Assembly: GCA_039932335.1 (NCBI GenBank)
Contig: JBDTQH010000030.1
Location: forward strand, 1,593-65,592
Length of the DNA stretch: 64,000 bases
Reading direction: 5' to 3'
Origin: Chloroflexota bacterium
GTDB lineage: Bacteria > Chloroflexota > Chloroflexia > QHBQ01 > JADMIH01
The notes under the pieces were generated by a model, which was not told the DNA's origin, searched no databases, and saw only the letters and a program-made list of their open reading frames with translations. This document shows positions 4,491-63,852 of this stretch, piece by piece. How positions within the stretch are numbered: the first letter of the stretch is position 1; the number at the start of each line of letters is the position of its first letter. A program made the position numbers and the translations under genes.

Positions 4491-5399
4491 TCACGTCTTC
4501 TGAAAGATGAGGATATATTGGTGCAACTGGTTGGCTACGAACCTGTATGGGTAGCCGAAGGGATAGAGGCGCGGTGTCTGGTCGTACCAGATTTTGCAGC
4601 CCCTGTAGAGAAGACCATCCAGCGCGGAGAGACGTATCACAAGGTCCGCATGGAGCATGTTGTGGTGCTCAGCGGTCGGTTGAAGGTCCTTGGCGAAGAT
4701 TACCATGTATCCTGACGGCTTCAGCAATTGGAGCGACAGGGACATTATACTCGTCAACTCGTCAAGAAAAGCGGGATAATGAAGATTGCCAAGATCCTGG
4801 GTGCTTGCCGTGAAAGGTGTCGAGGAGGAATCGCCTGTTTTCTTCTTCTTCTCACCGTTCTGCGGCCTGCGCATCATGTCGCCATAGGGAGGGTCGGTCA
4901 ACACCATGTCATAACGGCGGCCAGCCACTTCAGCCCGGTCGAGCATCTGGCGCGAGTCGGCGGCTATGGCAGTCTGTATGGGTAGGCCCTCCTGAGTAGC
5001 AACGCTATGGTAGGTCTCTATATAGTCAGCGGAGAGATCGACGCCTACGGCGTTGCGCTCCGCGAGAGAACAGCCCAGCAGAGTGCCGCCCACGCCCATA
5101 AACGGGTCGAGCACCCATTCACCACGCCTGGTAAAGAACTCTACTATCTTTGCCATCAATTGGGGTGGCTTGGGCGAGGGGTGGATGCGCCGCAGATTAT
5201 GGCCGTAGGATTGCGGGCCTGTGGTCGGGTAGGCGGTGGCGTCTACAGACGACAGGAAATGCACCCACTCGCGCCCCGTAAGGTCGTTCAGACGGTTTCT
5301 GGGGTCCCAGATTGAAGTCTGGGGTGTTAGTTTCGCCTTGGGAGCTTTAGTTTCCCGAAGCGACCGTTCGTATTTTGGGCGACGCTGTTCCTGGGCCAT
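4491..5399 (-). CDS. DNA methyltransferase, DPPY type (N6-adenine or N4-cytosine)
   Basis: 302 aa. HPSPKPPQL followed by AdoMet motif VLDPFMGVGGT, with catalytic LTDPPYG further downstream. GAGGAAG RBS. Confidence 0.8.
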   Translation of the reverse strand: MAQEQRRPKYERSLRETKAPKAKLTPQTSIWDPRNRLNDLTGREWVHFLSSVDATAYPTTGPQSYGHNLRRIHPSPKPPQLMAKIVEFFTRRGEWVLDPFMGVGGTLLGCSLAERNAVGVDLSADYIETYHSVATQEGLPIQTAIAADSRQMLDRAEVAGRRYDMVLTDPPYGDMMRRPQNGEKKKKTGDSSSTPFTASTQDLGNLHYPAFLDELTSIMSLSLQLLKPSGYMVIFAKDLQPTAEHHNMLHADLVIRLSALDGLLYRGCKIWYDQTPRLYPFGYPYRFVANQLHQYILIFQKT

Positions 5400-5466
5400 G
5401 GGCAGGCTTCCTCTGTCTAGAAGTTAGAAGTGTCTTTAGAGATCAAACGATCCGCGAAGGGTGCTG

Positions 5467-6540
5467 TTACGGACTGGTCTTTACCCAGTAGAGCATTTCC
5501 TGCACGGTGTTGCCTTTGTATGTGCGGGTTGTGCTATCGGCATCGGACCTGAAGCGGCGGTATTCACATGCGTACACTTCTACGTTCCCGCGCTGCGACA
5601 GCACCTCTACAACACGCTCGTGTGGAATGATTCCCTCATTGTTGTAGCTCATAAGGATCCAGTCTGCATGCGACTCGCAAACCAGCCGCGACAGGCTCTC
5701 TTCGGCCTGGCCGTTCTTGCAGTAGGCCGACATCTTGCCGTTCACGGCGCGCAGCCCGGCCACGCCCTTTATCTCAGGCTCATCGCCGAGCGCCAATGTT
5801 TCCAGCAGGTGATAATTTGTGGCGTACTGGCGGGAGTTATAGGGGGGATCTATGTAGAGCAGGTTGCACTCTTGCTGAGGGACTAGCTCGTTTGCGTCGG
5901 CCTGGTTCACGCTGTGATCGTGCGCGCTGTGTACAATCTGCGGCACATTAAGCATCAAGGGCTTATGGGCGCGTGGGTCCCAGCCTTTCAGGTAGGCGGC
6001 GTATGTGCCCGCCACGTTCGCGACGCGGGATACAGCTTCTATAAGGGCGGCCAGCAGCAAGTAACGCTCGCCGTCGGTGAGCCAACCCATCTCGCTCCAC
6101 CAGTTTATCTCTTTGCGAATGGCATCGATCCTCAGGGCGTTGGCGGAGGTGAAGTAGCGGCGTCCATCCACGCCGTCGGGCGAATAGTTGCGGTAGCAAA
6201 ACCCCTCGACTCCGCGCAGATTGTTCAAATGAGCAAAGATAAGCTGGATCGACACGGAAGGCCCGATACCTGGATCAACAACGCCCGCGTTGATCACACC
6301 GCTAAAAGTGGGCGCATCGTTCAGAGCGATGTAGGCATGCTGGAAGGCATACGAATAAGCCATAATATCGCCCGATATCACGCGCCAATCCTGCCGCTTC
6401 AGGTGACGAGCCACCGAGGTCGTGCCCGTGAAAGGGTCGCAGACAGTGAGCGGCCGAGCAGGCGTGCTGACAGCACGATGCATCATCAACACGTCGTCGA
6501 TGAAGTTTAGTAGACTGTCCTTGTTCCCGAGGTAACGCAT
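5467..6540 (-). CDS. D12-class (Dam-like) N6-adenine DNA methyltransferase
   Basis: 357 aa. N-terminal RYLGNK, motif I CDPFTGTTSV, catalytic YIDPPYNSRQY. Confidence 0.8.
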   Translation of the reverse strand: MRYLGNKDSLLNFIDDVLMMHRAVSTPARPLTVCDPFTGTTSVARHLKRQDWRVISGDIMAYSYAFQHAYIALNDAPTFSGVINAGVVDPGIGPSVSIQLIFAHLNNLRGVEGFCYRNYSPDGVDGRRYFTSANALRIDAIRKEINWWSEMGWLTDGERYLLLAALIEAVSRVANVAGTYAAYLKGWDPRAHKPLMLNVPQIVHSAHDHSVNQADANELVPQQECNLLYIDPPYNSRQYATNYHLLETLALGDEPEIKGVAGLRAVNGKMSAYCKNGQAEESLSRLVCESHADWILMSYNNEGIIPHERVVEVLSQRGNVEVYACEYRRFRSDADSTTRTYKGNTVQEMLYWVKTSP

Positions 6541-7016: not shown

Positions 7017-7964
7017 TTGCAGTTTGATCCGGTACAAACTATAGAGGCCTGGGGGCTGACTGTGCTGCTCTATCCTGGGGTGGTGTTTGCGGCCCTGGTT
7101 GTGCTGATCGGCGAATGGTTGGTGGGCACGATACGCCCGCTGCTCGCGCCCAGGCTCTACCGTGGGCAGGCGCGATTGTACAGTCTGCTCCAGCCCCTCT
7201 ACACGTTCCTGAAGCTACTGGGGCGTCAGGAGGCTGTGCGCTGGCAGCGTTCGGGCGATAGGCCTGTAGCGCCTTCACACCCGGGCGAGAGCATCCTGGG
7301 GGTTGTGGGAGCGATTGCCCCGCTGCTTGCCCTGTCGTTGCTGCCCACGGGGGGCAATTCTATCGAGCGCCAGCTGGGCGCTGTGGGCGACCTGCTGATT
7401 GTGCTGCTCCTCCTGGCTGTACAACCCGTTGCAAACGCAATACTGAAGTTGCGCGAGGGCGGGATTGAGGCCATGAACGGGGCACGTGCTCTTGGCCGCT
7501 TACTGGCAGGGTTACTGCCGACCATGCTGTTGCTGGCCGCACTTGTCGAGGTATCCGGGGGACATTCGCTGCAGTTGGCGAATCTTACCGTAGCACCACT
7601 GACCGCTCAACAGACGCTCGTAAGGCTACTGGCCGGTGTGGCCCTAATTGTCGCGCTCCCCTGGTGGTCAGGCCTGAGCAAAGAGCAGGCCAGTGGGAGT
7701 GCCGGCGCATACGCTGGACGGCTCCTGCAATCGGTGGCTCTCGCTGCGTTCTGGGCTGTTGTAATCCTTCCCGCGCCGGGCGCTCTGCCCTGGGCGGTGG
7801 CTCTATTTATTGCAGCAACGCTCTTTGCCTACGTCGCGATGCGCACAATAGCAGAGCGATGGGCACCTGCCCGCCGTGAAGGTGACGCAACGAACCTTCT
7901 CTGGGCAACCACCCTTCCACTCGCCGCAGTCGCGCTCATACTGGCGTTCTGGACTGGGGTGTGA
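7017..7964 (+). CDS. polytopic membrane protein; N-terminus weakly resembles the NuoH/HycD family
   Basis: 315-aa hydrophobic ORF with a TTG start. The segment RLYSLLQPLYTFLKLLGRQE resembles the GLLQPxADxxKxxxKE signature of NADH dehydrogenase subunit 1-type proteins. No other complex I or hydrogenase genes are nearby. Confidence 0.45.
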   Translation: MQFDPVQTIEAWGLTVLLYPGVVFAALVVLIGEWLVGTIRPLLAPRLYRGQARLYSLLQPLYTFLKLLGRQEAVRWQRSGDRPVAPSHPGESILGVVGAIAPLLALSLLPTGGNSIERQLGAVGDLLIVLLLLAVQPVANAILKLREGGIEAMNGARALGRLLAGLLPTMLLLAALVEVSGGHSLQLANLTVAPLTAQQTLVRLLAGVALIVALPWWSGLSKEQASGSAGAYAGRLLQSVALAAFWAVVILPAPGALPWAVALFIAATLFAYVAMRTIAERWAPARREGDATNLLWATTLPLAAVALILAFWTGV

Positions 7965-32945: not shown

Positions 32946-34094
32946 TTACCTGTTGGGCAGATACATAGGCATGATAACGTGCAGGAATTCGTCCTCGCCC
33001 ACCGGCTTAAGCACAGCAGGCGACTGGTAGGTCTTAGTTTCGATAGCAACCTGTGACGTCTTTATGACGCCCAGCACATCGATCAGGAAGCGCCCGTTGA
33101 GAGCAACTTGCCCCGCCTCGCCATCTACCACGCAATCAAGCTGGCTCACGTTGTCGCCAACCTCAGCGGCATTGGCCGATACGGTGATAACGCCCGGTGT
33201 GAGGTCGGCGCCCGGCTCTACCTGCACCCGCACAATATTGGCTGAATCCTTCGCAAAGATAGATGCCATACGCACAGCCTTCAAGAGGTCGGCCGTAGCA
33301 ATCACCGTGCGTGTGCCCCAGTCGGGCGGAATAACACGGTTGATGTCCACGTAGTTCCCCTCTACAAGCCGTGAGGTGACTTCGAGGTTATCGTGGCGGA
33401 ATAATACCTGGTTGCGGCCCGGCGTCAACACGAGGCTGACCGGCTCTGCGTCTTCGCCGTCAACATCAGGCAGCACACGTGCCAGCTCCACCATCGATCG
33501 GGAGGGCACAATCAGCTTGAGCACCGCTTCAACAGGAGCGTCCAGGTGGGTGACACGGCGCGACAGACGGAAACCATCGGCGGCGGCCATTGTCATCTCG
33601 CGGCCCTCTATCTGCACGAACACGCCTGCCAGTTGCGGGCGGCTGTCGTCACCGGAAGCGGCGAAGGCCACCTGCCCGATCATCTCCTTGAGCAGCGGGG
33701 CGGGTATACGAGCAACAGGCTTCTCGGTCACTTCCGGAATAATCGGAAACTCCTCAGCCGAGATGCCCTTGATGTTGGCCTCGAAGCGGGCGCACTTCAG
33801 GTGAAGGGTGCGCGTTCGCTCGTCCAGGGTCATCTTCACATGCTCGTTGGGGAGCGACGACACGAAATCTACCAGCAGCTTGGCGGGCACTGTGATCGCA
33901 CCTTCTTCTTCGACCTGGCAGCCGATCCAGTTGGTTATGCCTACTTCCAGGTTGGTGGCTGTCAGCTTGAGCCGCCCACCGTCCGTGGAAATAAGTATGT
34001 TGTTGAGGACAGGGAGTGTGGTCTTGTTGGCGACCGCCTTGCCGACTGTCTGGAGACCTTTGTGCAGGTTCTCCTGCAAACACGATACTTTCAT
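32946..34094 (-). CDS. dnaN: DNA polymerase III beta sliding clamp
   Basis: 382 aa. MKVSCLQENLHKGLQTVGKAV...LPVLNNILI N-terminus and a three-domain length typical of DnaN. Confidence 0.95.
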   Translation of the reverse strand: MKVSCLQENLHKGLQTVGKAVANKTTLPVLNNILISTDGGRLKLTATNLEVGITNWIGCQVEEEGAITVPAKLLVDFVSSLPNEHVKMTLDERTRTLHLKCARFEANIKGISAEEFPIIPEVTEKPVARIPAPLLKEMIGQVAFAASGDDSRPQLAGVFVQIEGREMTMAAADGFRLSRRVTHLDAPVEAVLKLIVPSRSMVELARVLPDVDGEDAEPVSLVLTPGRNQVLFRHDNLEVTSRLVEGNYVDINRVIPPDWGTRTVIATADLLKAVRMASIFAKDSANIVRVQVEPGADLTPGVITVSANAAEVGDNVSQLDCVVDGEAGQVALNGRFLIDVLGVIKTSQVAIETKTYQSPAVLKPVGEDEFLHVIMPMYLPNR

Positions 34095-35044
34095 TGGCGC
34101 CGCTTCTCCTGATGTTGGTTGGTAATTCTTCTCTGTTCGCTTAGCGTAATTATATCACCGAGGCCGGGAGCAGTGTAGTTTTCACACAAGAATGTGGATA
34201 AGCGCGATGCAGGTGTGCAGAACGCATCCCTGGCACAGCCTGCTGAGCAGTGGATTGCGAAGCCCCGCAGTAAGCCGATGTCTCCGGCGAGATACACAGG
34301 ACGTCGGGGCACCGACAGGAGGCTGCGCCCTGTCAGCGACACTCCGCCGGTTCCTTCACACCGCGGTGGAAAATGCGTCACATAGCCAACAGCAACCATT
34401 GAGCTGGATGCTTTGGCCGGCGCCAATACCGCAGCCGGGATGTAATTTACACTTTAGGGCCTGCTCAAACGGTTTGAGGATGGCCGAATCTGAAAATACA
34501 CCTGCTGAAGAGCATCGGTGAATTGCTCCTCGAAAGAATACGGGAGGCCTGTATCCGATTGGCCGGCCAGGGCGCACCCTGGCGGCCGTGCTCCTCTTAA
34601 CGAATCCGGGCCTGGCAGGCGTTTCGGGGCGCGCCACCCAGACTAATCCACATCCCGACAGGAAATGCGCGCGTTAACGGTCTTAACGATTCTTTTAAAA
34701 GAGATAAAGCAGTAGCCGTAGATAGTAGTGGATGTGCATCCGTGGAAAAGCAGCCGTTTCGTGCTTATTTTGCCGATTTTGCATCCGGATGTCCTGTGTA
34801 CAATGCCTGATTCTTTTGCACTGATTGAGATAGGCGTTGCACATCCATCGGAAAGGGATGTGCAACCCTCGCCTTTTCTCCACCATCCCGTCCACATCCG
34901 CTTGCACATCCACAGGATGTTGCAATTCGCGTTTTCACATCCAGCGCACATCCTTTATCCACACTCTTCGCAGTTTATCCCCTAAAAACATCCACTTATG
35001 CACAATTTTGGGCTTTTGCCCGGCCTTAATCCGGCAAATCCACA
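34095..35044. other. candidate chromosomal replication origin (DnaA-box cluster upstream of dnaN)
   Basis: 950 bp with no credible ORF. Perfect DnaA boxes are TGTGGATAA (34193-34201) and TTATCCACA (34955-34963). One-mismatch boxes are TAATCCACA (34644-52), TTATGCACA (34996-35004) and CGTGGATAA (35058-66). Weaker boxes are ACATCCACA (34906-14) and AAATCCACA (35036-44). An AT-rich patch lies around 34670-34735. Confidence 0.6.
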
Positions 35045-35890
35045 CTATTGCACAACCCGTGGATAAAGCCGTCCGGCGATCGTCACGAGCACGATATCAA
35101 CCACCAACATTACGGCGAAGTCTACAGGCAGTGTGAAGTGGCTGGCCGATCCTACAACCATAAGGGTGCGCAAAGCATCGACCATGTAGCTGAGCGGGTT
35201 GAAGGTCGCCAGCACCGCAACATACGCAGGCATAATCGCCAGCGGGTAAAGCGAATTAGAAGCAAAGAACATAGGCATCATAATTATCTGGCCGAGGCCC
35301 TGCACCCGCTCGCGGTTACGTACCAGTGCAGCGATAATAAGCGAGATCGTAGAGAAGCAGACCGCACCCAGGAAAACGAAAACCAGCGCGGCAACCCAGG
35401 CCAGCGGGTTTACCTGCAAATGGACGCCCATCAGAATCGCCAGCACCGATATGGTCAGCGCCTGCGCCACCCCTCGCACGCCTGAGCCAAGCCCCTTGCC
35501 CAGCACCAGCGCCGAACGCGGCATAGGACTGACAAGATACTTCTGCAAAGTGCCCTGGTCCCGCTCCCAGATTGTGTTAAGCCCTTGCAAGATCGAAATC
35601 GTAAGGACGGATTGCGCCAGTATGCCCGGTGTGACGAAATCAAGGTAGCTGCCCATGCCTTCAGGCAGCACCCTCAGACGCCCAAACACGCCCCCGAACA
35701 ACAGCAGCCAGAGCACAGGCTGAATAGATCGAGTAAAGATGTCCCACTGGTCGTGCATCAATTTCTGCACTTCCATCTCGGCGATAGCCAGAACCTTCTT
35801 CACATACTGGACAAGGGGCGCAGGCTGGGCTGTGAGCGGCTGTGCAGCCTCGTGCGGGGTTGGTTTTGTTGGTGTTACGGTGGAAGTCAT
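35045..35890 (-). CDS. ABC-2 type transporter permease
   Basis: 281 aa with six TM segments, located immediately downstream of an ABC ATPase gene. Confidence 0.85.
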   Translation of the reverse strand: MTSTVTPTKPTPHEAAQPLTAQPAPLVQYVKKVLAIAEMEVQKLMHDQWDIFTRSIQPVLWLLLFGGVFGRLRVLPEGMGSYLDFVTPGILAQSVLTISILQGLNTIWERDQGTLQKYLVSPMPRSALVLGKGLGSGVRGVAQALTISVLAILMGVHLQVNPLAWVAALVFVFLGAVCFSTISLIIAALVRNRERVQGLGQIIMMPMFFASNSLYPLAIMPAYVAVLATFNPLSYMVDALRTLMVVGSASHFTLPVDFAVMLVVDIVLVTIAGRLYPRVVQ

Positions 35891-35934: not shown

Positions 35935-36771
35935 CTAGCGGAGGCGGCCCGCAGTGCGGCGTACATTCCGCACTTCGCGGTATGTGCCACCCGACTCGAT
36001 ATTCGCGCCGGTAAAGTGGGCGAAGGCATCTTCAAGATCCGCCTCATCGGTGCCCACCTGCTCAATCAACTCGTCGGGTGTGCCCATCGCGACGATTTTG
36101 CCCCGGTCCATGATCGCCACACGCGTGCATAGCTGTTCTGCTTCTTCCATATAATGGGTCGTAACAAACAGCGTTGTGCCATATTCCTCGCGCAGCGCCT
36201 CAAGGTGGTTCCATACATTGCGGCGTGCTACCGGGTCGAGACCGATTGTCGGCTCGTCAAGGAAGAGAACGCGCGGCCTATGGATAAGCGTCTGGGCAAT
36301 TTCCAGGCGTCGAACCATACCGCCTGAGTACGTGCTGACCATGCGCTTGGACGCTTCGGTCAATCCCATGAACTCCAGCGCCTCATCAACGCGCTCTCTT
36401 TGCTCGCGGCGCGGCACATCGTAGAGCTTCGCGAACACGAGCAGGTTCTCTACCCCCGTAAGATTGCCGTCAGCCGACAGCGCCTGAGGGACGTAGCCGA
36501 TCAGACGGCGCACTTCGCTTGCTTGCCGCACGATGTCATAGCCGCCCACACTGGCGGTCCCACCGCTCGGCGGCAGGAGAGTGACGAGCATCTTGATAGT
36601 AGTGGTCTTGCCTGCCCCGTTTGGACCAAGCAGCCCGAAGACAGCGCCCGGTTCCACCTGCAAATCAATGCCGTCAACAGCCGTGAAGTCGCCATACATT
36701 TTCTTGAGCGCGTTAAGTGCCACTATCGGCTTTGTTACATGCGCCCCGTTGTTTCGATCATTATCTAACAT
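35935..36771 (-). CDS. ABC transporter ATP-binding protein (DrrA-like exporter)
   Basis: 278 aa. Walker A GPNGAGKTT, signature YSGGMVRRL, Walker B LFLDEPT. Confidence 0.9.
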   Translation of the reverse strand: MLDNDRNNGAHVTKPIVALNALKKMYGDFTAVDGIDLQVEPGAVFGLLGPNGAGKTTTIKMLVTLLPPSGGTASVGGYDIVRQASEVRRLIGYVPQALSADGNLTGVENLLVFAKLYDVPRREQRERVDEALEFMGLTEASKRMVSTYSGGMVRRLEIAQTLIHRPRVLFLDEPTIGLDPVARRNVWNHLEALREEYGTTLFVTTHYMEEAEQLCTRVAIMDRGKIVAMGTPDELIEQVGTDEADLEDAFAHFTGANIESGGTYREVRNVRRTAGRLR

Positions 36772-59648: not shown

Positions 59649-60842
59649 ATGAAACCCGAAGAAACCTCTGAGATCGATACATCAACAGAGCACGATACAA
59701 TGGACAGCCCTTCAGATACATCAAGCAGCAGCCAGACATCTGCCGTGACCACCGAACAACACGATACTTTCCCGATCCAGGGTATAGACTACATTGAGTT
59801 CTATGTAGGCAACGCCAAGCAGGCTGCTCACTTCTACCGCACCGCGATGGGCTTCAACATCACCGCCTACTGCGGGCCTGAGACCAAAGTGCGTGACCGC
59901 GCCTCATATGTGGTTGAGCAGGCGAAAATACGCCTTGTGCTGACCGCACCCATGTATGCCACCGGAGAGATCGCTGAGCATGTGTTCAAGCATGGCGACG
60001 GCGTAAAAGACATCGCCCTGCGCGTGCCTGATGTGGACTACGCTTACCACACAGCCGTCGAGCGCGGAGCCACAGGCATAACCAAGCCTCATACAGTTGA
60101 AGGCGAGAAAGGCCACATCCGCAAGGCAGCCATCGCCGCCTGTGGCGACACCATTCACACCTTCATCAATCGCGACGATTACGCTGGAACCTTCGCCCCC
60201 GGCTACCACAAGCGCGACATCCCCGGCATTCCCACCGGCGTCAAAGCTGTAGACCACATTGTGCTGAACGTCGAGCTTGGGAAGATGGACTACTGGGTGG
60301 AATATTATGCCCGCATCATGGGCTTCAGCCAGCTTCTCTCCTTCGACGACAAAGACATCTCCACCGAATACTCCGCGCTGATGTCCAAAGTGATGCAGGA
60401 CGGCACCGGGCGGGTCAAGTTCCCCATCAACGAACCTGCTGAGGGCAAGAAGAAGTCGCAGATCGATGAATACCTCGAGTTCTACGGTGGCCCAGGCGCA
60501 CAGCACGTAGCCTTGATTACAGGCGATGTGCTTGGCACGGTTACCAATCTTAAGAACAACGGCATGGAGTTCCTGCGCGTGCCCCACTCCTATTATGAGG
60601 ACGCTCCTGAGCGCGTTGGCGATATCAAGGAAGACCTCAAACGGCTTGAAGAGTTGGGCGTACTGATTGATCGCGACGACGAGGGTTATCTACTCCAGAT
60701 ATTCAGCAAGCCCGTGCAAGACCGCCCCACCCTCTTCTACGAAATCATCGAGCGTCACGGCAGCCGAGGCTTCGGCAAAGGTAACTTCCGTGCACTCTTC
60801 GAGGCCATCGAGCGAGAGCAGGAGCTACGGGGTAATCTGTAA
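59649..60842 (+). CDS. hppD: 4-hydroxyphenylpyruvate dioxygenase
   Basis: 397 aa, GGAGGAG RBS. Two VOC modules, with HIALRV-like, DHIVLNV, FYEIIER and GFGKGNFRALFEAIE motifs. Confidence 0.9.
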   Translation: MKPEETSEIDTSTEHDTMDSPSDTSSSSQTSAVTTEQHDTFPIQGIDYIEFYVGNAKQAAHFYRTAMGFNITAYCGPETKVRDRASYVVEQAKIRLVLTAPMYATGEIAEHVFKHGDGVKDIALRVPDVDYAYHTAVERGATGITKPHTVEGEKGHIRKAAIAACGDTIHTFINRDDYAGTFAPGYHKRDIPGIPTGVKAVDHIVLNVELGKMDYWVEYYARIMGFSQLLSFDDKDISTEYSALMSKVMQDGTGRVKFPINEPAEGKKKSQIDEYLEFYGGPGAQHVALITGDVLGTVTNLKNNGMEFLRVPHSYYEDAPERVGDIKEDLKRLEELGVLIDRDDEGYLLQIFSKPVQDRPTLFYEIIERHGSRGFGKGNFRALFEAIEREQELRGNL

Positions 60843-60848
60843 GCGGGA

Positions 60849-60932
60849 GTTGTCAGTTGTCAGTTATGGTGGTCTGCGGTCTGCCGTCGGCGGTCGTCAA
60901 CTGACAACTGACAACTGACAACTGACAACGAG
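60849..60932. repeat. composite heptamer-array element, copy L (hairpin form)
   Basis: 12 in-phase 7-mers: GTTGTCA x2, GTTATGG, the TGGTCTG/CGGTCTG/CCGTCGG/CGGTCGT core, CAACTGA x4, CAACGAG. The two ends are complementary to each other. Confidence 0.9.
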
Positions 60933-60940
60933 CAACACCC

Positions 60941-61969
60941 ATGAAGCTAGTCACCTTTTCACACCTACACAGAACGGCACCTGACCGCGTCGAGGGCCGA
61001 GACACCCACGTTGGGGTCTATCTGCTTGGGGACATGCCGCGTGTGCTCAACCTTGAGGCCGCACACGAATGGCTCAACAAGAAGCGCGGCGGCACTTCCT
61101 CAGAGCACCCGCCCATGACCATGCTGGAACTGCTGGATGGTGGGCCTGCTGCTATGGAGCGCGTCAGCAACCTGGCGATGGCCGTGTGTGAGGACGAGGA
61201 AGGCTTGTGGGAATGCTCGCAAAGTATTGACGACGTGCATTTGCTCGCGCCTGTGCCTTTCCCGCGCACCATACGTGACTTCTACGCCTTTGAGCAGCAT
61301 GTCAAAACAGCCCGTGCCTTGCGCGGCCTGGAGATGATACCCGAGTGGTACGACCATCCTGTCTTCTACTACTCAAATCCCGGTTGCGTGTACGGCCCTG
61401 ACGAGGACGTACCGTTTCCACGAGGCTCTAAAGAGGTTGACTATGAACTTGAAATCGCCTGCGTTATAGGCAAGCCTGGCCGCGACATCTCTGCTGACGA
61501 GGCTAACGACTACATAGCAGGCTATCTCATTCTCAACGACTGGAGCGCGCGAGACATCTGGCGCAACTTCGAGTCGAAACTGAGCATGGGCCCCGCCAAA
61601 AGCAAAGACTTCGCCAATTCGCTCGGGCCCTGGCTTGTCACGCCTGACGAACTGGAAGAGCGCCGCGAAGGCACCGGAGCCGAAACACGCTACAACCTCG
61701 GCATGTCGGCCCGGATAAACGGCAAAGAGCTATCCAGCGGCAACGCCAACACTCTCACCCACACTTTCGCATCCATGATCGAGTGGGCCTCTACCGATGT
61801 ATGGCTCCGCCCCGGCGATGTCCTCGGCTCCGGCACAGTGGGCACAGGTTGTATATTGGAGTTGCGCCCCGAGAACACAGGCGGCTGGCTCAAGCCCGAT
61901 GATGTGGTCGAGTTGGAGATTGAGAAGCTGGGAGTGTTACGGAACAGGCTGGTAAGGCACACAACGTAG
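60941..61969 (+). CDS. fumarylacetoacetate hydrolase-family protein
   Basis: 342 aa. FAH-domain pattern (DYELEIACVIGKPG, LNDWSARD, GDVLGSGT). The context between hppD and hmgA supports the call. Confidence 0.85.
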   Translation: MKLVTFSHLHRTAPDRVEGRDTHVGVYLLGDMPRVLNLEAAHEWLNKKRGGTSSEHPPMTMLELLDGGPAAMERVSNLAMAVCEDEEGLWECSQSIDDVHLLAPVPFPRTIRDFYAFEQHVKTARALRGLEMIPEWYDHPVFYYSNPGCVYGPDEDVPFPRGSKEVDYELEIACVIGKPGRDISADEANDYIAGYLILNDWSARDIWRNFESKLSMGPAKSKDFANSLGPWLVTPDELEERREGTGAETRYNLGMSARINGKELSSGNANTLTHTFASMIEWASTDVWLRPGDVLGSGTVGTGCILELRPENTGGWLKPDDVVELEIEKLGVLRNRLVRHTT

Positions 61970-61981
61970 CGTGTAGCAGGC

Positions 61982-62044
61982 TTGAACCCGGACGCGGCAC
62001 GGATAAGCGATGATTTTGATGCGCCTCTACCTGATGAGTTTTGA
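61982..62044 (+). pseudogene. possible relic of an antitoxin C-terminus
   Basis: A short open frame encodes ...ARISDDFDAPLPDEF*. The DDFDAPL-type tail recalls the C-termini of small antitoxin/DUF2281-like proteins. There is no N-terminal part. Confidence 0.25.
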
Positions 62045-62144
62045 CTGTGAAAGGGATAGCTCTGTCTGAAACGCTGGTGAGCCTATACCTGGACGATAAA
62101 GTTGCAAGCGATGTAGTAATTACAAGAGCTTAGGAGGCTGACCT

Positions 62145-62363
62145 ATGACAGAACTTCTGCAAGAAGCCTTTGAGGAAGCGTCGAAGCTACCCCAGGAAGA
62201 GCAGGACGCGATGGCCCAGTGGATACTGGCAGAGCTGGCCTCAGAGCGGAAATGGGATGAGGCTTTCGCTTCCTCTTCCGATATACTGGCGCAGTTAGCA
62301 GACGCAGCGTTGGAAGATTATGAGCAAGGTAGGACGACGCCAATAGAGCCGGACAAGTTGTGA
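62145..62363 (+). CDS. putative type II antitoxin
   Basis: 72 aa, acidic, AGGAGG RBS. It overlaps the downstream toxin-like gene by 4 nt (GTGA). Confidence 0.6.
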   Translation: MTELLQEAFEEASKLPQEEQDAMAQWILAELASERKWDEAFASSSDILAQLADAALEDYEQGRTTPIEPDKL

Positions 62364-62629
62364 AATCACACGCAAATCCACAGTTCTATAAAATGCTCCG
62401 CAAGTTACCACTTAGTGCGAGACAAGCGGCGCAAGAAGCATACAAACAGTTTGTGCAAGATCCGTATCACCCAAGTTTGCACTTCAAGCAAATACATTCT
62501 AATATGCCGATATACTCAGTTCGCATCAATATAGATTATCGGGCTGTAGGGATTCGTAAGGGAGATACCATCACCTGGTTTTGGATAGGCTCTCATTCTG
62601 ACTACGATAAGCTAATCTCTGGAAAATAG
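62360..62629 (+). CDS. RelE/ParE-superfamily toxin-like protein
   Basis: 89 aa, basic. YSVRINIDYRAVGIRKGDTITWFWIGSHSDYDKL is the typical RelE/ParE-like C-terminal pattern. Confidence 0.65.
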   Translation: MKSHANPQFYKMLRKLPLSARQAAQEAYKQFVQDPYHPSLHFKQIHSNMPIYSVRINIDYRAVGIRKGDTITWFWIGSHSDYDKLISGK

Positions 62630-62649
62630 ACCAAAAGGAGGAACCAACG

Positions 62650-63852
62650 ATGCCCTTCTACCATAAACTAGGCAGTATACCTCACAAACGGCACACTCAG
62701 CACCGCCGCCCCGATGGCGAGCTTTATACTGAGGAGCTTTTCGGCACAGAAGGTTTCAGCGGCAACGCATCGTTGCTATATCACCACCATCCCCCTGTGC
62801 GCGTGGTTGATATAAAGGCGTGTGAGGCTCCCCCGCTCGAAGATTGGAACCTCCCCGTCCAGCGCCACATACACACCCGCACAAAGGCCGCCGAGCCTGT
62901 GGGCGACCCCATCTCAGGCCGCCGCGTGCTGATGTACAACAGCGACTGCCGCCTCGGTATCGTTCTTCCCGCCGAGCCGATGAACTACCACTACAAGAAC
63001 GGGCAGGCCGACGAGCTCTATTTTATACATGAGGGAACCGGGCGCTTCGAGACTATGTTCGGCACTCTCCCCTACCGCGAAGGCGACTATGTGCTCTTGC
63101 CCCACGGCACAACCTATCGCATCGTGATGGACGAGGGCAAGCCGCAACGCTGGCTCACCGTCGAAGGCAAGAACATACAACCGCCTCAACGCTACCGCAA
63201 TGAGTTCGGGCAACTGCTGGAGCATTCCCCCTACTGCGAGCGTGACATTCGTGTGCCGGAAGAACTGCTCACAATCACAGGTGACGAGGCTGGCAAAGGT
63301 CCGTTCGAGGTGCTCGTGCGCGCAAACGACCTGCTCACCGCCTATTACTACGACCACCACCCTCTCGATGTGGTAGGCTGGGATGGCTATCACTACCCCT
63401 ACATCTTCAACATCGAGGATTTCGAGCCGATCACAGGCCGCATTCACCAGCCGCCTCCCGTCCACCAGACATTTGAGGCGCACAACTTCGTGGTCTGCTC
63501 GTTTGTGCCGCGCAAGTACGACTATCATCCGCTGGGCATACCCGCCCCCTATAACCACTCGAACATCGACAGCGAAGAAGTGCTCTACTATGTCAACGGC
63601 AACTTCATGAGCCGTCGTGGCATAGATGTCGCCTCCTTCACGCTGCACCCCCACGGCATCCCACACGGCCCGCACCCAGGCGCGGCAGAGGCCTCCATCG
63701 GTAAAGACGCGACTGAAGAGCTTGCCGTTATGGTCGACACATTCCGCCCGCTGAAGCTTACAAGGTGGGCCGAGCAATATGACGACCCATCCTATCCGAC
63801 AAGCTGGCTGGATGCTAAGAAGCCCGATGTAATGCCGACCGACACCGACTAG
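62650..63852 (+). CDS. hmgA: homogentisate 1,2-dioxygenase
   Basis: 400 aa, AGGAGG RBS. LYTEELFGTEGFSGNASLLYH and the C-terminal HGPHPG region. Confidence 0.9.
   Translation: MPFYHKLGSIPHKRHTQHRRPDGELYTEELFGTEGFSGNASLLYHHHPPVRVVDIKACEAPPLEDWNLPVQRHIHTRTKAAEPVGDPISGRRVLMYNSDCRLGIVLPAEPMNYHYKNGQADELYFIHEGTGRFETMFGTLPYREGDYVLLPHGTTYRIVMDEGKPQRWLTVEGKNIQPPQRYRNEFGQLLEHSPYCERDIRVPEELLTITGDEAGKGPFEVLVRANDLLTAYYYDHHPLDVVGWDGYHYPYIFNIEDFEPITGRIHQPPPVHQTFEAHNFVVCSFVPRKYDYHPLGIPAPYNHSNIDSEEVLYYVNGNFMSRRGIDVASFTLHPHGIPHGPHPGAAEASIGKDATEELAVMVDTFRPLKLTRWAEQYDDPSYPTSWLDAKKPDVMPTDTD

Follow-up and report, generated by a model that had tools for sequence, protein, structure and literature searches.

Where does chromosome replication begin in a bacterium in which dnaN does not have dnaA as its neighbor? 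The question is raised by a 64-kb stretch of contig JBDTQH010000030.1 from an uncultured Chloroflexia bacterium (the whole stretch is called the window here). In it, dnaN, encoding a 382-aa DNA polymerase III beta clamp (32946-34094, − strand; Pfam DNA_pol3_beta, _2, and _3; E values of 1e-22 to 4e-31), is separated from the next gene, an ABC-2 permease gene, by a 950-bp gap (34095-35044). An initial annotation of the window had proposed the entire gap as a candidate oriC. We found the gap to consist of three parts, namely, a dnaN promoter, an unconserved spacer, and a conserved noncoding module, and the last of these (34681-35004) is probably the core of the chromosomal oriC, organized on the "basal unwinding system" plan. 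The oriC proposal is supported by the conserved module, its DnaA boxes, its DnaA-trios, and synteny, but for this shorter interval rather than for all 950 bp.

A conserved module found once per locus in Chloroflexia genomes

The window was compared with 15 Chloroflexia metagenome-assembled genomes (MAGs; L001 to L015), whose DnaN proteins share 79 to 94% identity with that of the window. Together with the window, these gave 16 aligned genomes, and the independent genome L138 brought the set to 17. In all 17, the module is a discrete, conserved, noncoding element (325 bases). A profile built from the 16 aligned genomes identified exactly one copy in the locus of each of them, plus one in that of L138 (E = 1e-48). 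Mean pairwise identity across the module is 57%, yet 66 of 331 alignment columns are invariant, and these coincide with box cores (T.CAC) and with the sequence CTACTA. The same profile search of four unlinked dnaA loci (L135, L136, L137, and L139) recovered no module copy, ruling out a second copy beside dnaA in those loci.

In the window, as in 14 relatives, the module is situated upstream of dnaN. An open reading frame (ORF) separates it from dnaN in L012, and in L013 it lies downstream of the gene, at a distance of 4.3 kb and in the opposite orientation; the module is therefore not tied to the dnaN promoter. ORFs without Pfam matches lie between module and dnaN in L006 (553-1659, − strand, 368 aa) and L012 (8464-9795, + strand, 443 aa) and are probably lineage-specific insertions.

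An array of DnaA boxes

Every DnaA box listed in the initial annotation was found at its reported coordinates. Perfect TTATCCACA boxes occur at 34193-34201 (−) and 34955-34963 (+), one-mismatch sites at 34644-52 (TAATCCACA), 34996-35004 (TTATGCACA), and 35058-66 (−; TTATCCACG), and two-mismatch sites at 34906-14 and 35036-44. The description of all of these sites as intergenic did not hold, since 35058-66 is part of the permease ORF, whose stop codon borders 35036-44. The window contains 16 sites with at most one mismatch, compared to 8.07 ± 2.68 in shuffled sequences (0 of 100 shuffles reached 16), and 5 of the 16 are located within 875 bp (34193-35066). A relaxed form of the classical box, TTWTNCACA, again allowing one mismatch, gave eight sites in 34680-35060, where the frequency elsewhere in the window would predict 0.41. 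The clustering of DnaA boxes in the gap thus exceeds chance.

The most overrepresented word in this region, CACATCC, is absent from the initial annotation; 8 of its 12 copies in the window lie in 34649-34953, and the shorter word ACATCC occurs 12 times, compared to 0.33 expected. From the alignment, CACATCC reads as the 3′ end of a DnaA box plus a favored TCC flank. About 14 box positions are conserved in place across the 16 genomes. A matrix pooled from 16 conserved positions in the 16 genomes gave T-T-a-T-n-C-A-C-a, which is the TTATNCACA box with a free fifth position, and its invariant positions are T4, C6, A7, and C8. The trinucleotide TCC directly follows the box at 7 of the 16 conserved sites. 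Several relatives carry near-perfect boxes at the same positions, such as CTATCCACA in L002.

Per-position conservation in the 16 genomes delimits an array of DnaA-box-like sites at 34795-35004, mostly on the + strand. It begins with a − strand box, TTGTACACA (34795-803), followed on the + strand by TTTTGCACT (34814-22) and CGTTGCACA (34835-43), the latter with an inverted partner on the − strand at 34859-67. The remaining boxes are all on the + strand: TTCTCCACC (34876-84), CCGTCCACA (34888-96), GCTTGCACA (34900-08), GTTTTCACA (34931-39), CAGCGCACA (34942-50), the perfect TTATCCACA (34955-63), TTATCCCCT (34975-83), ACATCCACT (34988-96), and TTATGCACA, which closes the array. Many of these boxes carry TCC directly 3′, and start-to-start spacings on the + strand are mostly near multiples of 10 to 11 bp, with two sites re-registered by eye for this analysis. 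Three additional boxes, AAATCCACA (35036-44), TATTGCACA (35046-54), and TTATCCACG (35058-66, −), span the permease stop codon and last codons (35036-35066) and are conserved only in L001 to L006. In the module of L015 (6422-6798), three to four tandem copies of an 11-bp unit that includes the box tail GGGCACATCCT are present, an expansion that agrees with box spacing of one helical turn.

Putative unwinding boxes, DnaA-trios, and the AT-rich tract

At one edge of the box cluster is an AT-rich tract, TCTTAACGATTCTTTTAAAAGAGATAAAG (34681-34709; 76% AT), which is a candidate DNA unwinding element. The least stable 41-mer of the gap, 34688-34728, has a ΔG of −47.4, compared to a window mean of −60.0 ± 4.1. 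The homologous 32-mer is 69 to 88% AT in all 16 aligned genomes, while its sequence is not conserved. Unwinding elements typically keep their composition while their sequence drifts. The AT-rich patch that the initial annotation had suggested as an unwinding element is, accordingly, both the least stable part of the gap and a feature whose composition is retained in 16 genomes. A 12-nt direct repeat (TCTTAACGAATC / TCTTAACGATTC; 34595-34606 and 34681-34692, 86 bp apart) has one copy at the edge of this tract and the other in the unconserved spacer, and TTAACG-like words recur at the tract edge in several relatives.

Between the AT-rich tract and the array are two tandem boxes on the − strand, both oriented toward the tract. 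The first unwinding box, TTTTCCACG (34741-34749), has two mismatches to TTATCCACA (median of 2 in the 16 genomes), and the second, the 8-nt GATGCACA (34733-34740), has three when written as GGATGCACA (median of 3). A 4-nt − strand spacer, TCCA (34729-34732), separates the second box from a DnaA-trio-like block (34710-34728, −), so that 12 nt, made up of the 8-nt second box and TCCA, lie between the first box and the trios. The block consists of CTA CTA (34723-34728), which is 3′-GAT GAT-5′ on the + strand, then TCT ACG G, and then CTA CTG C. Read in the dnaN sense, the module accordingly has as its left end TTTTCCACG GATGCACA TCCA CTA CTA TCT ACG GCT ACT GCT TTA TCT CTT TTA AAA. All 17 genomes keep CTACT(A/G/T), with one third-base change in four, and CGGCTACT of the trio block is largely kept across genomes. 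In the window, GAT GAT is followed by AGA, so that only two trios are in register. GAT GAC GAA, a second run of trios, begins 17 nt beyond the second box with its register shifted by 1 nt, and a conserved GC-rich 7-nt block lies between the two trio groups. A 1-nt deletion in L007 and L011 restores the register of the distal run.

Published rules for the unwinding system call for an uninterrupted series of three or more 3′-NAN-5′ trios no farther than 16 nt from a box that has ≤2 mismatches (Richardson 2019, Pelliciari 2021). The second box has ≤4 mismatches, the box-to-trio spacer has a mode of 12 to 13 nt, and GAT is the commonest trio next to the box under the same rules. The first box of the module agrees with these rules in mismatches (≤2) and orientation, as do the second box and the spacer length.

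Taken together, these elements suggest how the module might work. DnaA would occupy the approximately 14 TTATNCACA-type boxes within 34733-35004, many of them about one helical turn apart, and the tandem boxes at 34741-49 and 34733-40 (−) would direct a DnaA-ATP oligomer over the 4-nt spacer onto 3′-GAT GAT-5′ (34723-28). Stretching of the trio strand by this oligomer would then open the 76% AT tract, where the helicase would be loaded. Forks would proceed in both directions, the leftward one traveling in the direction of dnaN transcription. That DnaA binds the module, opens it, and starts replication there is thus predicted from its sequence and conservation.

Position of dnaA among relatives

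No dnaA was detected in the 64-kb window by tblastn with a relative's DnaA or in the Pfam map. This agrees with the initial annotation, which had noted that dnaA does not adjoin dnaN: there is none within 29 to 34 kb of the module, and the permease gene is the neighbor. A dnaA remnant hidden in the gap was likewise rejected, as tblastn with the relative's DnaA gave no match in the window. The oriC proposal is supported by three relatives in which the module sits between the two genes. A full dnaA (Pfam DnaA_N, Bac_DnaA, and Bac_DnaA_C) lies 2 kb upstream of dnaN in L014, with the module between them. The order in L007 is dnaA, two ABC genes, module, and dnaN, and that in L138 is dnaA, four inverted genes, module, and dnaN. 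At the other end of this series, a 1.37-Mb contig of the L005 genome (CAWCNY010000002.1) carries dnaA at ~769 kb and the module at ~84 kb, i.e., ~684 kb apart, with dnaA and dnaN on opposite strands. A large inversion, one of whose breakpoints lay between dnaA and the ABC genes, could account for this arrangement. In the L015 MAG, dnaA and the module are on different contigs. ORFs upstream of dnaN in L012 and L013 were considered as dnaA and rejected, the former having no Pfam match and the latter being MiaB-like.

The module stays with dnaN in most genomes. The absence of dnaA from the window can be attributed to rearrangements in this family that split dnaA from the origin-dnaN unit, after which the origin would have remained with dnaN. 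With linked and unlinked dnaA both present among close relatives, the family may serve as a natural test of whether an origin follows dnaN or dnaA once the two are separated. The module also provides a concrete, alignable oriC model, with candidate boxes, trios, and unwinding tract, for an uncultured soil Chloroflexia family.

The dnaA gene has a conserved upstream region of its own. In five relatives (L135:9200-10000, L136, L138, L139, and L014), 500 to 700 bp upstream of dnaA are conserved and contain a GCTTCGGG hairpin motif and two elements resembling promoters in addition to three or four boxes (GTGGAAATGTGCAAAAC...TGTGGAAAA). This region has neither trios nor an AT tract and matched no Rfam family at E ≤ 1; it may represent a promoter under autoregulation, together with a leader or a small RNA. 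About 770 to 880 bp upstream of the unlinked dnaA, L139 (positions 1-117) also carries inverted tandem arrays of heptamers, (CGATGGA)x4.6 followed by (ATCGTCC)x11, of which L138 has a shorter version.

GC skew and other evidence against an origin

Several observations weigh against placing the origin at the module. The check proposed in the initial annotation, a cumulative GC-skew analysis, was carried out on the 64 kb and did not show an origin-type switch. We used the raw profile, regression on gene orientation, a split-point scan of four-fold sites, and the pooled flanks of the 17 genomes; there was no minus-to-plus GC-skew switch at the module, either in the 64-kb window or in the ±10-kb flanks. 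Cumulative skew in the window reaches a maximum, not a minimum, near 28 to 40 kb. After correction for gene orientation, the side term was −0.028 ± 0.0075, the right side being poorer in G, and at four-fold sites every split point gave a negative side term, with the module not being the best split. In the ±10-kb flanks of the 17 genomes, genes codirectional with the predicted forks had lower coding-strand G-C skew (−0.077) than the others (+0.003). The skew tendency is therefore weakly opposite to that of an origin; it lends the origin no support and is not a refutation. The test is a weak one because of the small 64-kb span, largely orthologous flanks, and confounding by codon usage.

Two further points concern the boxes and trios themselves. 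Three consecutive trios in register are not present in the window, and only 3 of the 17 genomes (L002, L010, and L012) reach that number. The conservation of three to four boxes upstream of dnaA in relatives means, moreover, that a second DnaA-binding locus exists.

The last three genes of the window (59649-63852), which encode an HPPD-like dioxygenase, an FAA hydrolase, and a homogentisate dioxygenase-like protein, have third-position GC skews of −0.22 to −0.35 and drive much of the left-to-right skew trend. Their annotation suggests tyrosine catabolism.

Alternative explanations

Box clusters outside oriC are known from Escherichia coli, where datA and DARS are examples. The module could likewise be a DnaA-titrating or -recycling locus of this type, or an extended dnaN regulatory array, with the true origin elsewhere, e.g., beside dnaA. 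Such a role would fit with the lack of a GC-skew signature at the module, with the three or four conserved boxes upstream of dnaA in five relatives, and with the conserved box at the dnaN promoter, if this is taken as DnaA regulation of dnaN. We nevertheless consider it unlikely. Oriented tandem boxes, trios, and an AT tract conserved in composition are needless for titration, and the boxes upstream of dnaA, which have neither AT tract nor trios, resemble an autoregulated promoter. Moreover, the module and the dnaN promoter move independently of each other, three relatives have the module between dnaA and dnaN, and its format is also that of sequences in the dnaA-dnaN gap of canonical distant relatives, the expected place for oriC. 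If it were instead half of a bipartite origin of the Bacillus subtilis or Helicobacter pylori type, it would require the boxes upstream of dnaA through DNA looping. The geometry is right in L014 and L138, where dnaA and its upstream boxes are 2 to 6 kb from the module, but the two clusters are ~684 kb apart on opposite strands in L005, lie on separate contigs in the L015 MAG, and cannot be paired over the 29 to 34 kb around the module in the window, where there is no dnaA. The module is equally conserved whether dnaA is near or far and must therefore work without a nearby partner, making a bipartite origin quite improbable.

The concentration of CACATCC (8 of 12 window copies), the TCC that follows 7 of 16 conserved boxes, and two adjacent DNA methyltransferase genes at 4491-6540 could be taken to mean that a factor other than DnaA, for instance a second origin-binding protein or a methyltransferase of the GGATG type, recognizes the CACATCC/GGATG words. 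This is very improbable, considering that invariance falls on T4, C6, A7, and C8 of the box and not on the TCC, that near-perfect boxes such as CTATCCACA in L002 take the same positions in relatives, and that CATCC/GGATG occurs 112 times in the 63 kb outside the gap, close to the ~135 predicted from base composition. We accordingly read CACATCC as a box 3′ end with a TCC flank and rejected it as a motif in its own right or as a target of GGATG methylation. Chance, or the decay of a former origin that now has no function, would be easier to entertain from the window alone, which offers only two perfect boxes; with one copy kept at the locus in each of 17 genomes and 66 invariant columns next to a spacer that has diverged beyond recognition, it is exceedingly improbable.

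The module as the core of oriC is thus the reading that we favor, and within it the irregular trio block raises a separate, rather doubtful possibility: that the origin uses a noncanonical single-strand loading track composed of two in-register trios (no more than two in 15 of 17 genomes), the GC-rich 7-nt block, a run shifted by 1 nt, and a repeated TCC-extended box. If this were the case, a slip in register may be tolerated or exploited by the DnaA filament, a second origin factor may read the GC block or the TCC flank, or replication polarity may be unusual, given the reversed local skew.

The dnaN promoter, spacer, and flanking genes

The gap was described in the initial annotation as gene free and as the longest noncoding stretch in the window. 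The ORF map bears out both statements, and GC content at third codon positions (GC3) and independent gene calls agree with the former. ORFs inside the gap have a GC3 of 0.55 to 0.57, versus 0.65 to 0.73 in real genes, and an independent gene caller left the same gap empty in a short public contig with identical DnaN (the public contigs encoding identical DnaN are only 2.8 and 6.4 kb). Searches of the gap returned no Rfam family (the spacer gave no match at E ≤ 1), no tRNA, and no tandem repeats, terminators, or strict sigma-70 promoters.

The part of the gap nearest dnaN (34095-34205, −) is its leader and promoter, with a GGAGAA ribosome-binding site, an extended −10 element, and a perfect DnaA box. 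The extended −10, GTGATATAAT (34149-34158, −), belongs to a TGnTATAAT element that, like the TTATCCACA box ~38 bp upstream of it (34193-34201, −), is aligned and conserved across the 17 genomes. The strict sigma-70 scan gave no match at this promoter because the −35 is poor. The promoter box and −10 are retained in L012 and L015, in which the origin module is not adjacent; the box is therefore assigned to a dnaN operator outside the origin core, likely one through which DnaA controls the dnaN promoter, and not to the origin, where the initial annotation had placed it.

Between promoter and module is a GC-rich spacer of 475 bp (34206-34680). In blastn searches with a word size of 7 against all relative loci, it matched only itself, so that similarity is undetectable even to L001, whose DnaN is 94% identical. 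The equivalent distance in relatives ranges from about 250 to 1500 bp, and the spacer would be filler. A hidden gene or RNA was rejected here, as there was no similarity to relatives, no Rfam or tRNA match, and no independent gene call. The one-mismatch box TAATCCACA at 34644-34652 (+) flanks the module and is aligned only in L001 to L006, the nearest subclade.

On the other side of the module are the ABC-2 permease gene (35045-35890, −) and an ABC ATPase gene (35935-36771, −), both assigned by Pfam and transcribed toward the module, followed by a divergent PrsW protease gene. This ABC pair is the one found between dnaA and the module in L007. Farther away, the two methyltransferase genes (4491-5399 and 5467-6540, both −) encode an N6_N4_Mtase protein and a D12-class N6-adenine methylase and are adjoined by a divergent 315-aa ORF without a Pfam match (7017-7964, +). 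Together, they may form a restriction-modification system for an asymmetric site.

Comparison with known origins

For comparison, reference modules were converted to the dnaN-sense strand. The closest parallel is incC of B. subtilis (boxes 6/7, trios, and an AT-rich 27-mer; PMC6669920, PMC8287927), which has the same order and orientation relative to dnaN. It reads TTATCCACA AATCCACA GGCC CTA CTA TTA CTT CTA CTA, followed by an AT-rich tract and dnaN (PMC8287927 supplement). In both incC and the window, a first box is overlapped by a second box of 8 nt, after which come a 4-nt spacer, CTA CTA, an AT tract, and dnaN, with 12 nt from first box to trios and a trio block grouped 2+2+2. In the window, however, the GC-rich 7-nt block takes the place of trios 3 and 4 and puts the distal trios 1 nt out of register, TCCA forms the spacer instead of GGCC, and dnaA is not adjacent. 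The distance from AT tract to dnaN is ~590 bp, compared to ~40 bp in B. subtilis, which additionally requires DnaD and DnaB. The Deinococcus radiodurans module, which is active in vitro (PMC8287927), reads TTTTCCACA GTATCCACA GGCC CTA CTA CTG CTA CTA CTG (PMC8287927 supplement). It shares with the window a first box of TTTTCCAC(A/G), tandem boxes, a 4-nt spacer, proximal GAT GAT, and GAC trios further out, and it agrees with the window in element order, in the 12 nt between first box and trios, and in orientation toward dnaN. Unlike the window, D. radiodurans has six uninterrupted trios and a module beside both dnaA and dnaN.

In mode of action, the module would be like the box-trio unwinding modules of Firmicutes and Deinococcus; in location, it resembles the dnaN-linked oriC of cyanobacteria such as Synechococcus elongatus, which lies upstream of dnaN with dnaA elsewhere on the chromosome. 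TTTTCCACA-type boxes are common to both. The S. elongatus DnaA unwinds its own module (PMC8287927). Unlike the cyanobacteria, which are another phylum, close Chloroflexia relatives include genomes with linked and with unlinked dnaA; the separation is therefore recent and traceable.

The E. coli oriC is also not adjacent to dnaA and has opposed box sub-arrays, with low-affinity boxes placed at intervals of roughly one helical turn and an unwinding element at the end. The module shares these features: a nonadjacent dnaA, opposed sub-arrays, helical-turn spacing, and a candidate terminal unwinding element. Unlike the window, E. coli uses GATC/SeqA and IHF (no clustering of GATC was seen by eye here), and it lacks a canonical box-adjacent trio module (PMC6669920).

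Within the phylum, dnaA, dnaN, and other origin-linked genes are unclustered in Thermomicrobium roseum (PMC2615216) and Chloroflexus aurantiacus (PMC3150298). In these reports, the origin was located from GC skew or according to the dnaA convention, and no box/trio module was defined. Published unwinding-module predictions for cultured Chloroflexi are low scoring, and the family represented by the window is therefore a cleaner example. A scan of metagenomes with the DnaA of this family returned only relatives with ≤63% identity, which were used as canonical comparators. Seven distant metagenomic relatives (L058, L075, L083, L093, L108, L111, and L113) have the same format in canonical dnaA-dnaN gaps. 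The L113 module, TTTCCACA TATTCACA CTCC CTA CTA CGA CGT CTA CTA, is followed by an AT tract and dnaN and is in register and directly upstream of dnaN. In three other Chloroflexota MAGs (L043, L045, and L047; ~4500-5050; DnaN ~44% identical), a 500-bp box cluster ends in a canonical module, TTATCCAC-TTATCCACA-ACCC-CTA CTA, 5 kb upstream of dnaN and with no dnaA within 10 kb. Origins unlinked from dnaA may thus be common in Chloroflexota. The dispersal of dnaA and dnaN in this phylum was already known, and in other respects the element described here would be an ordinary origin.

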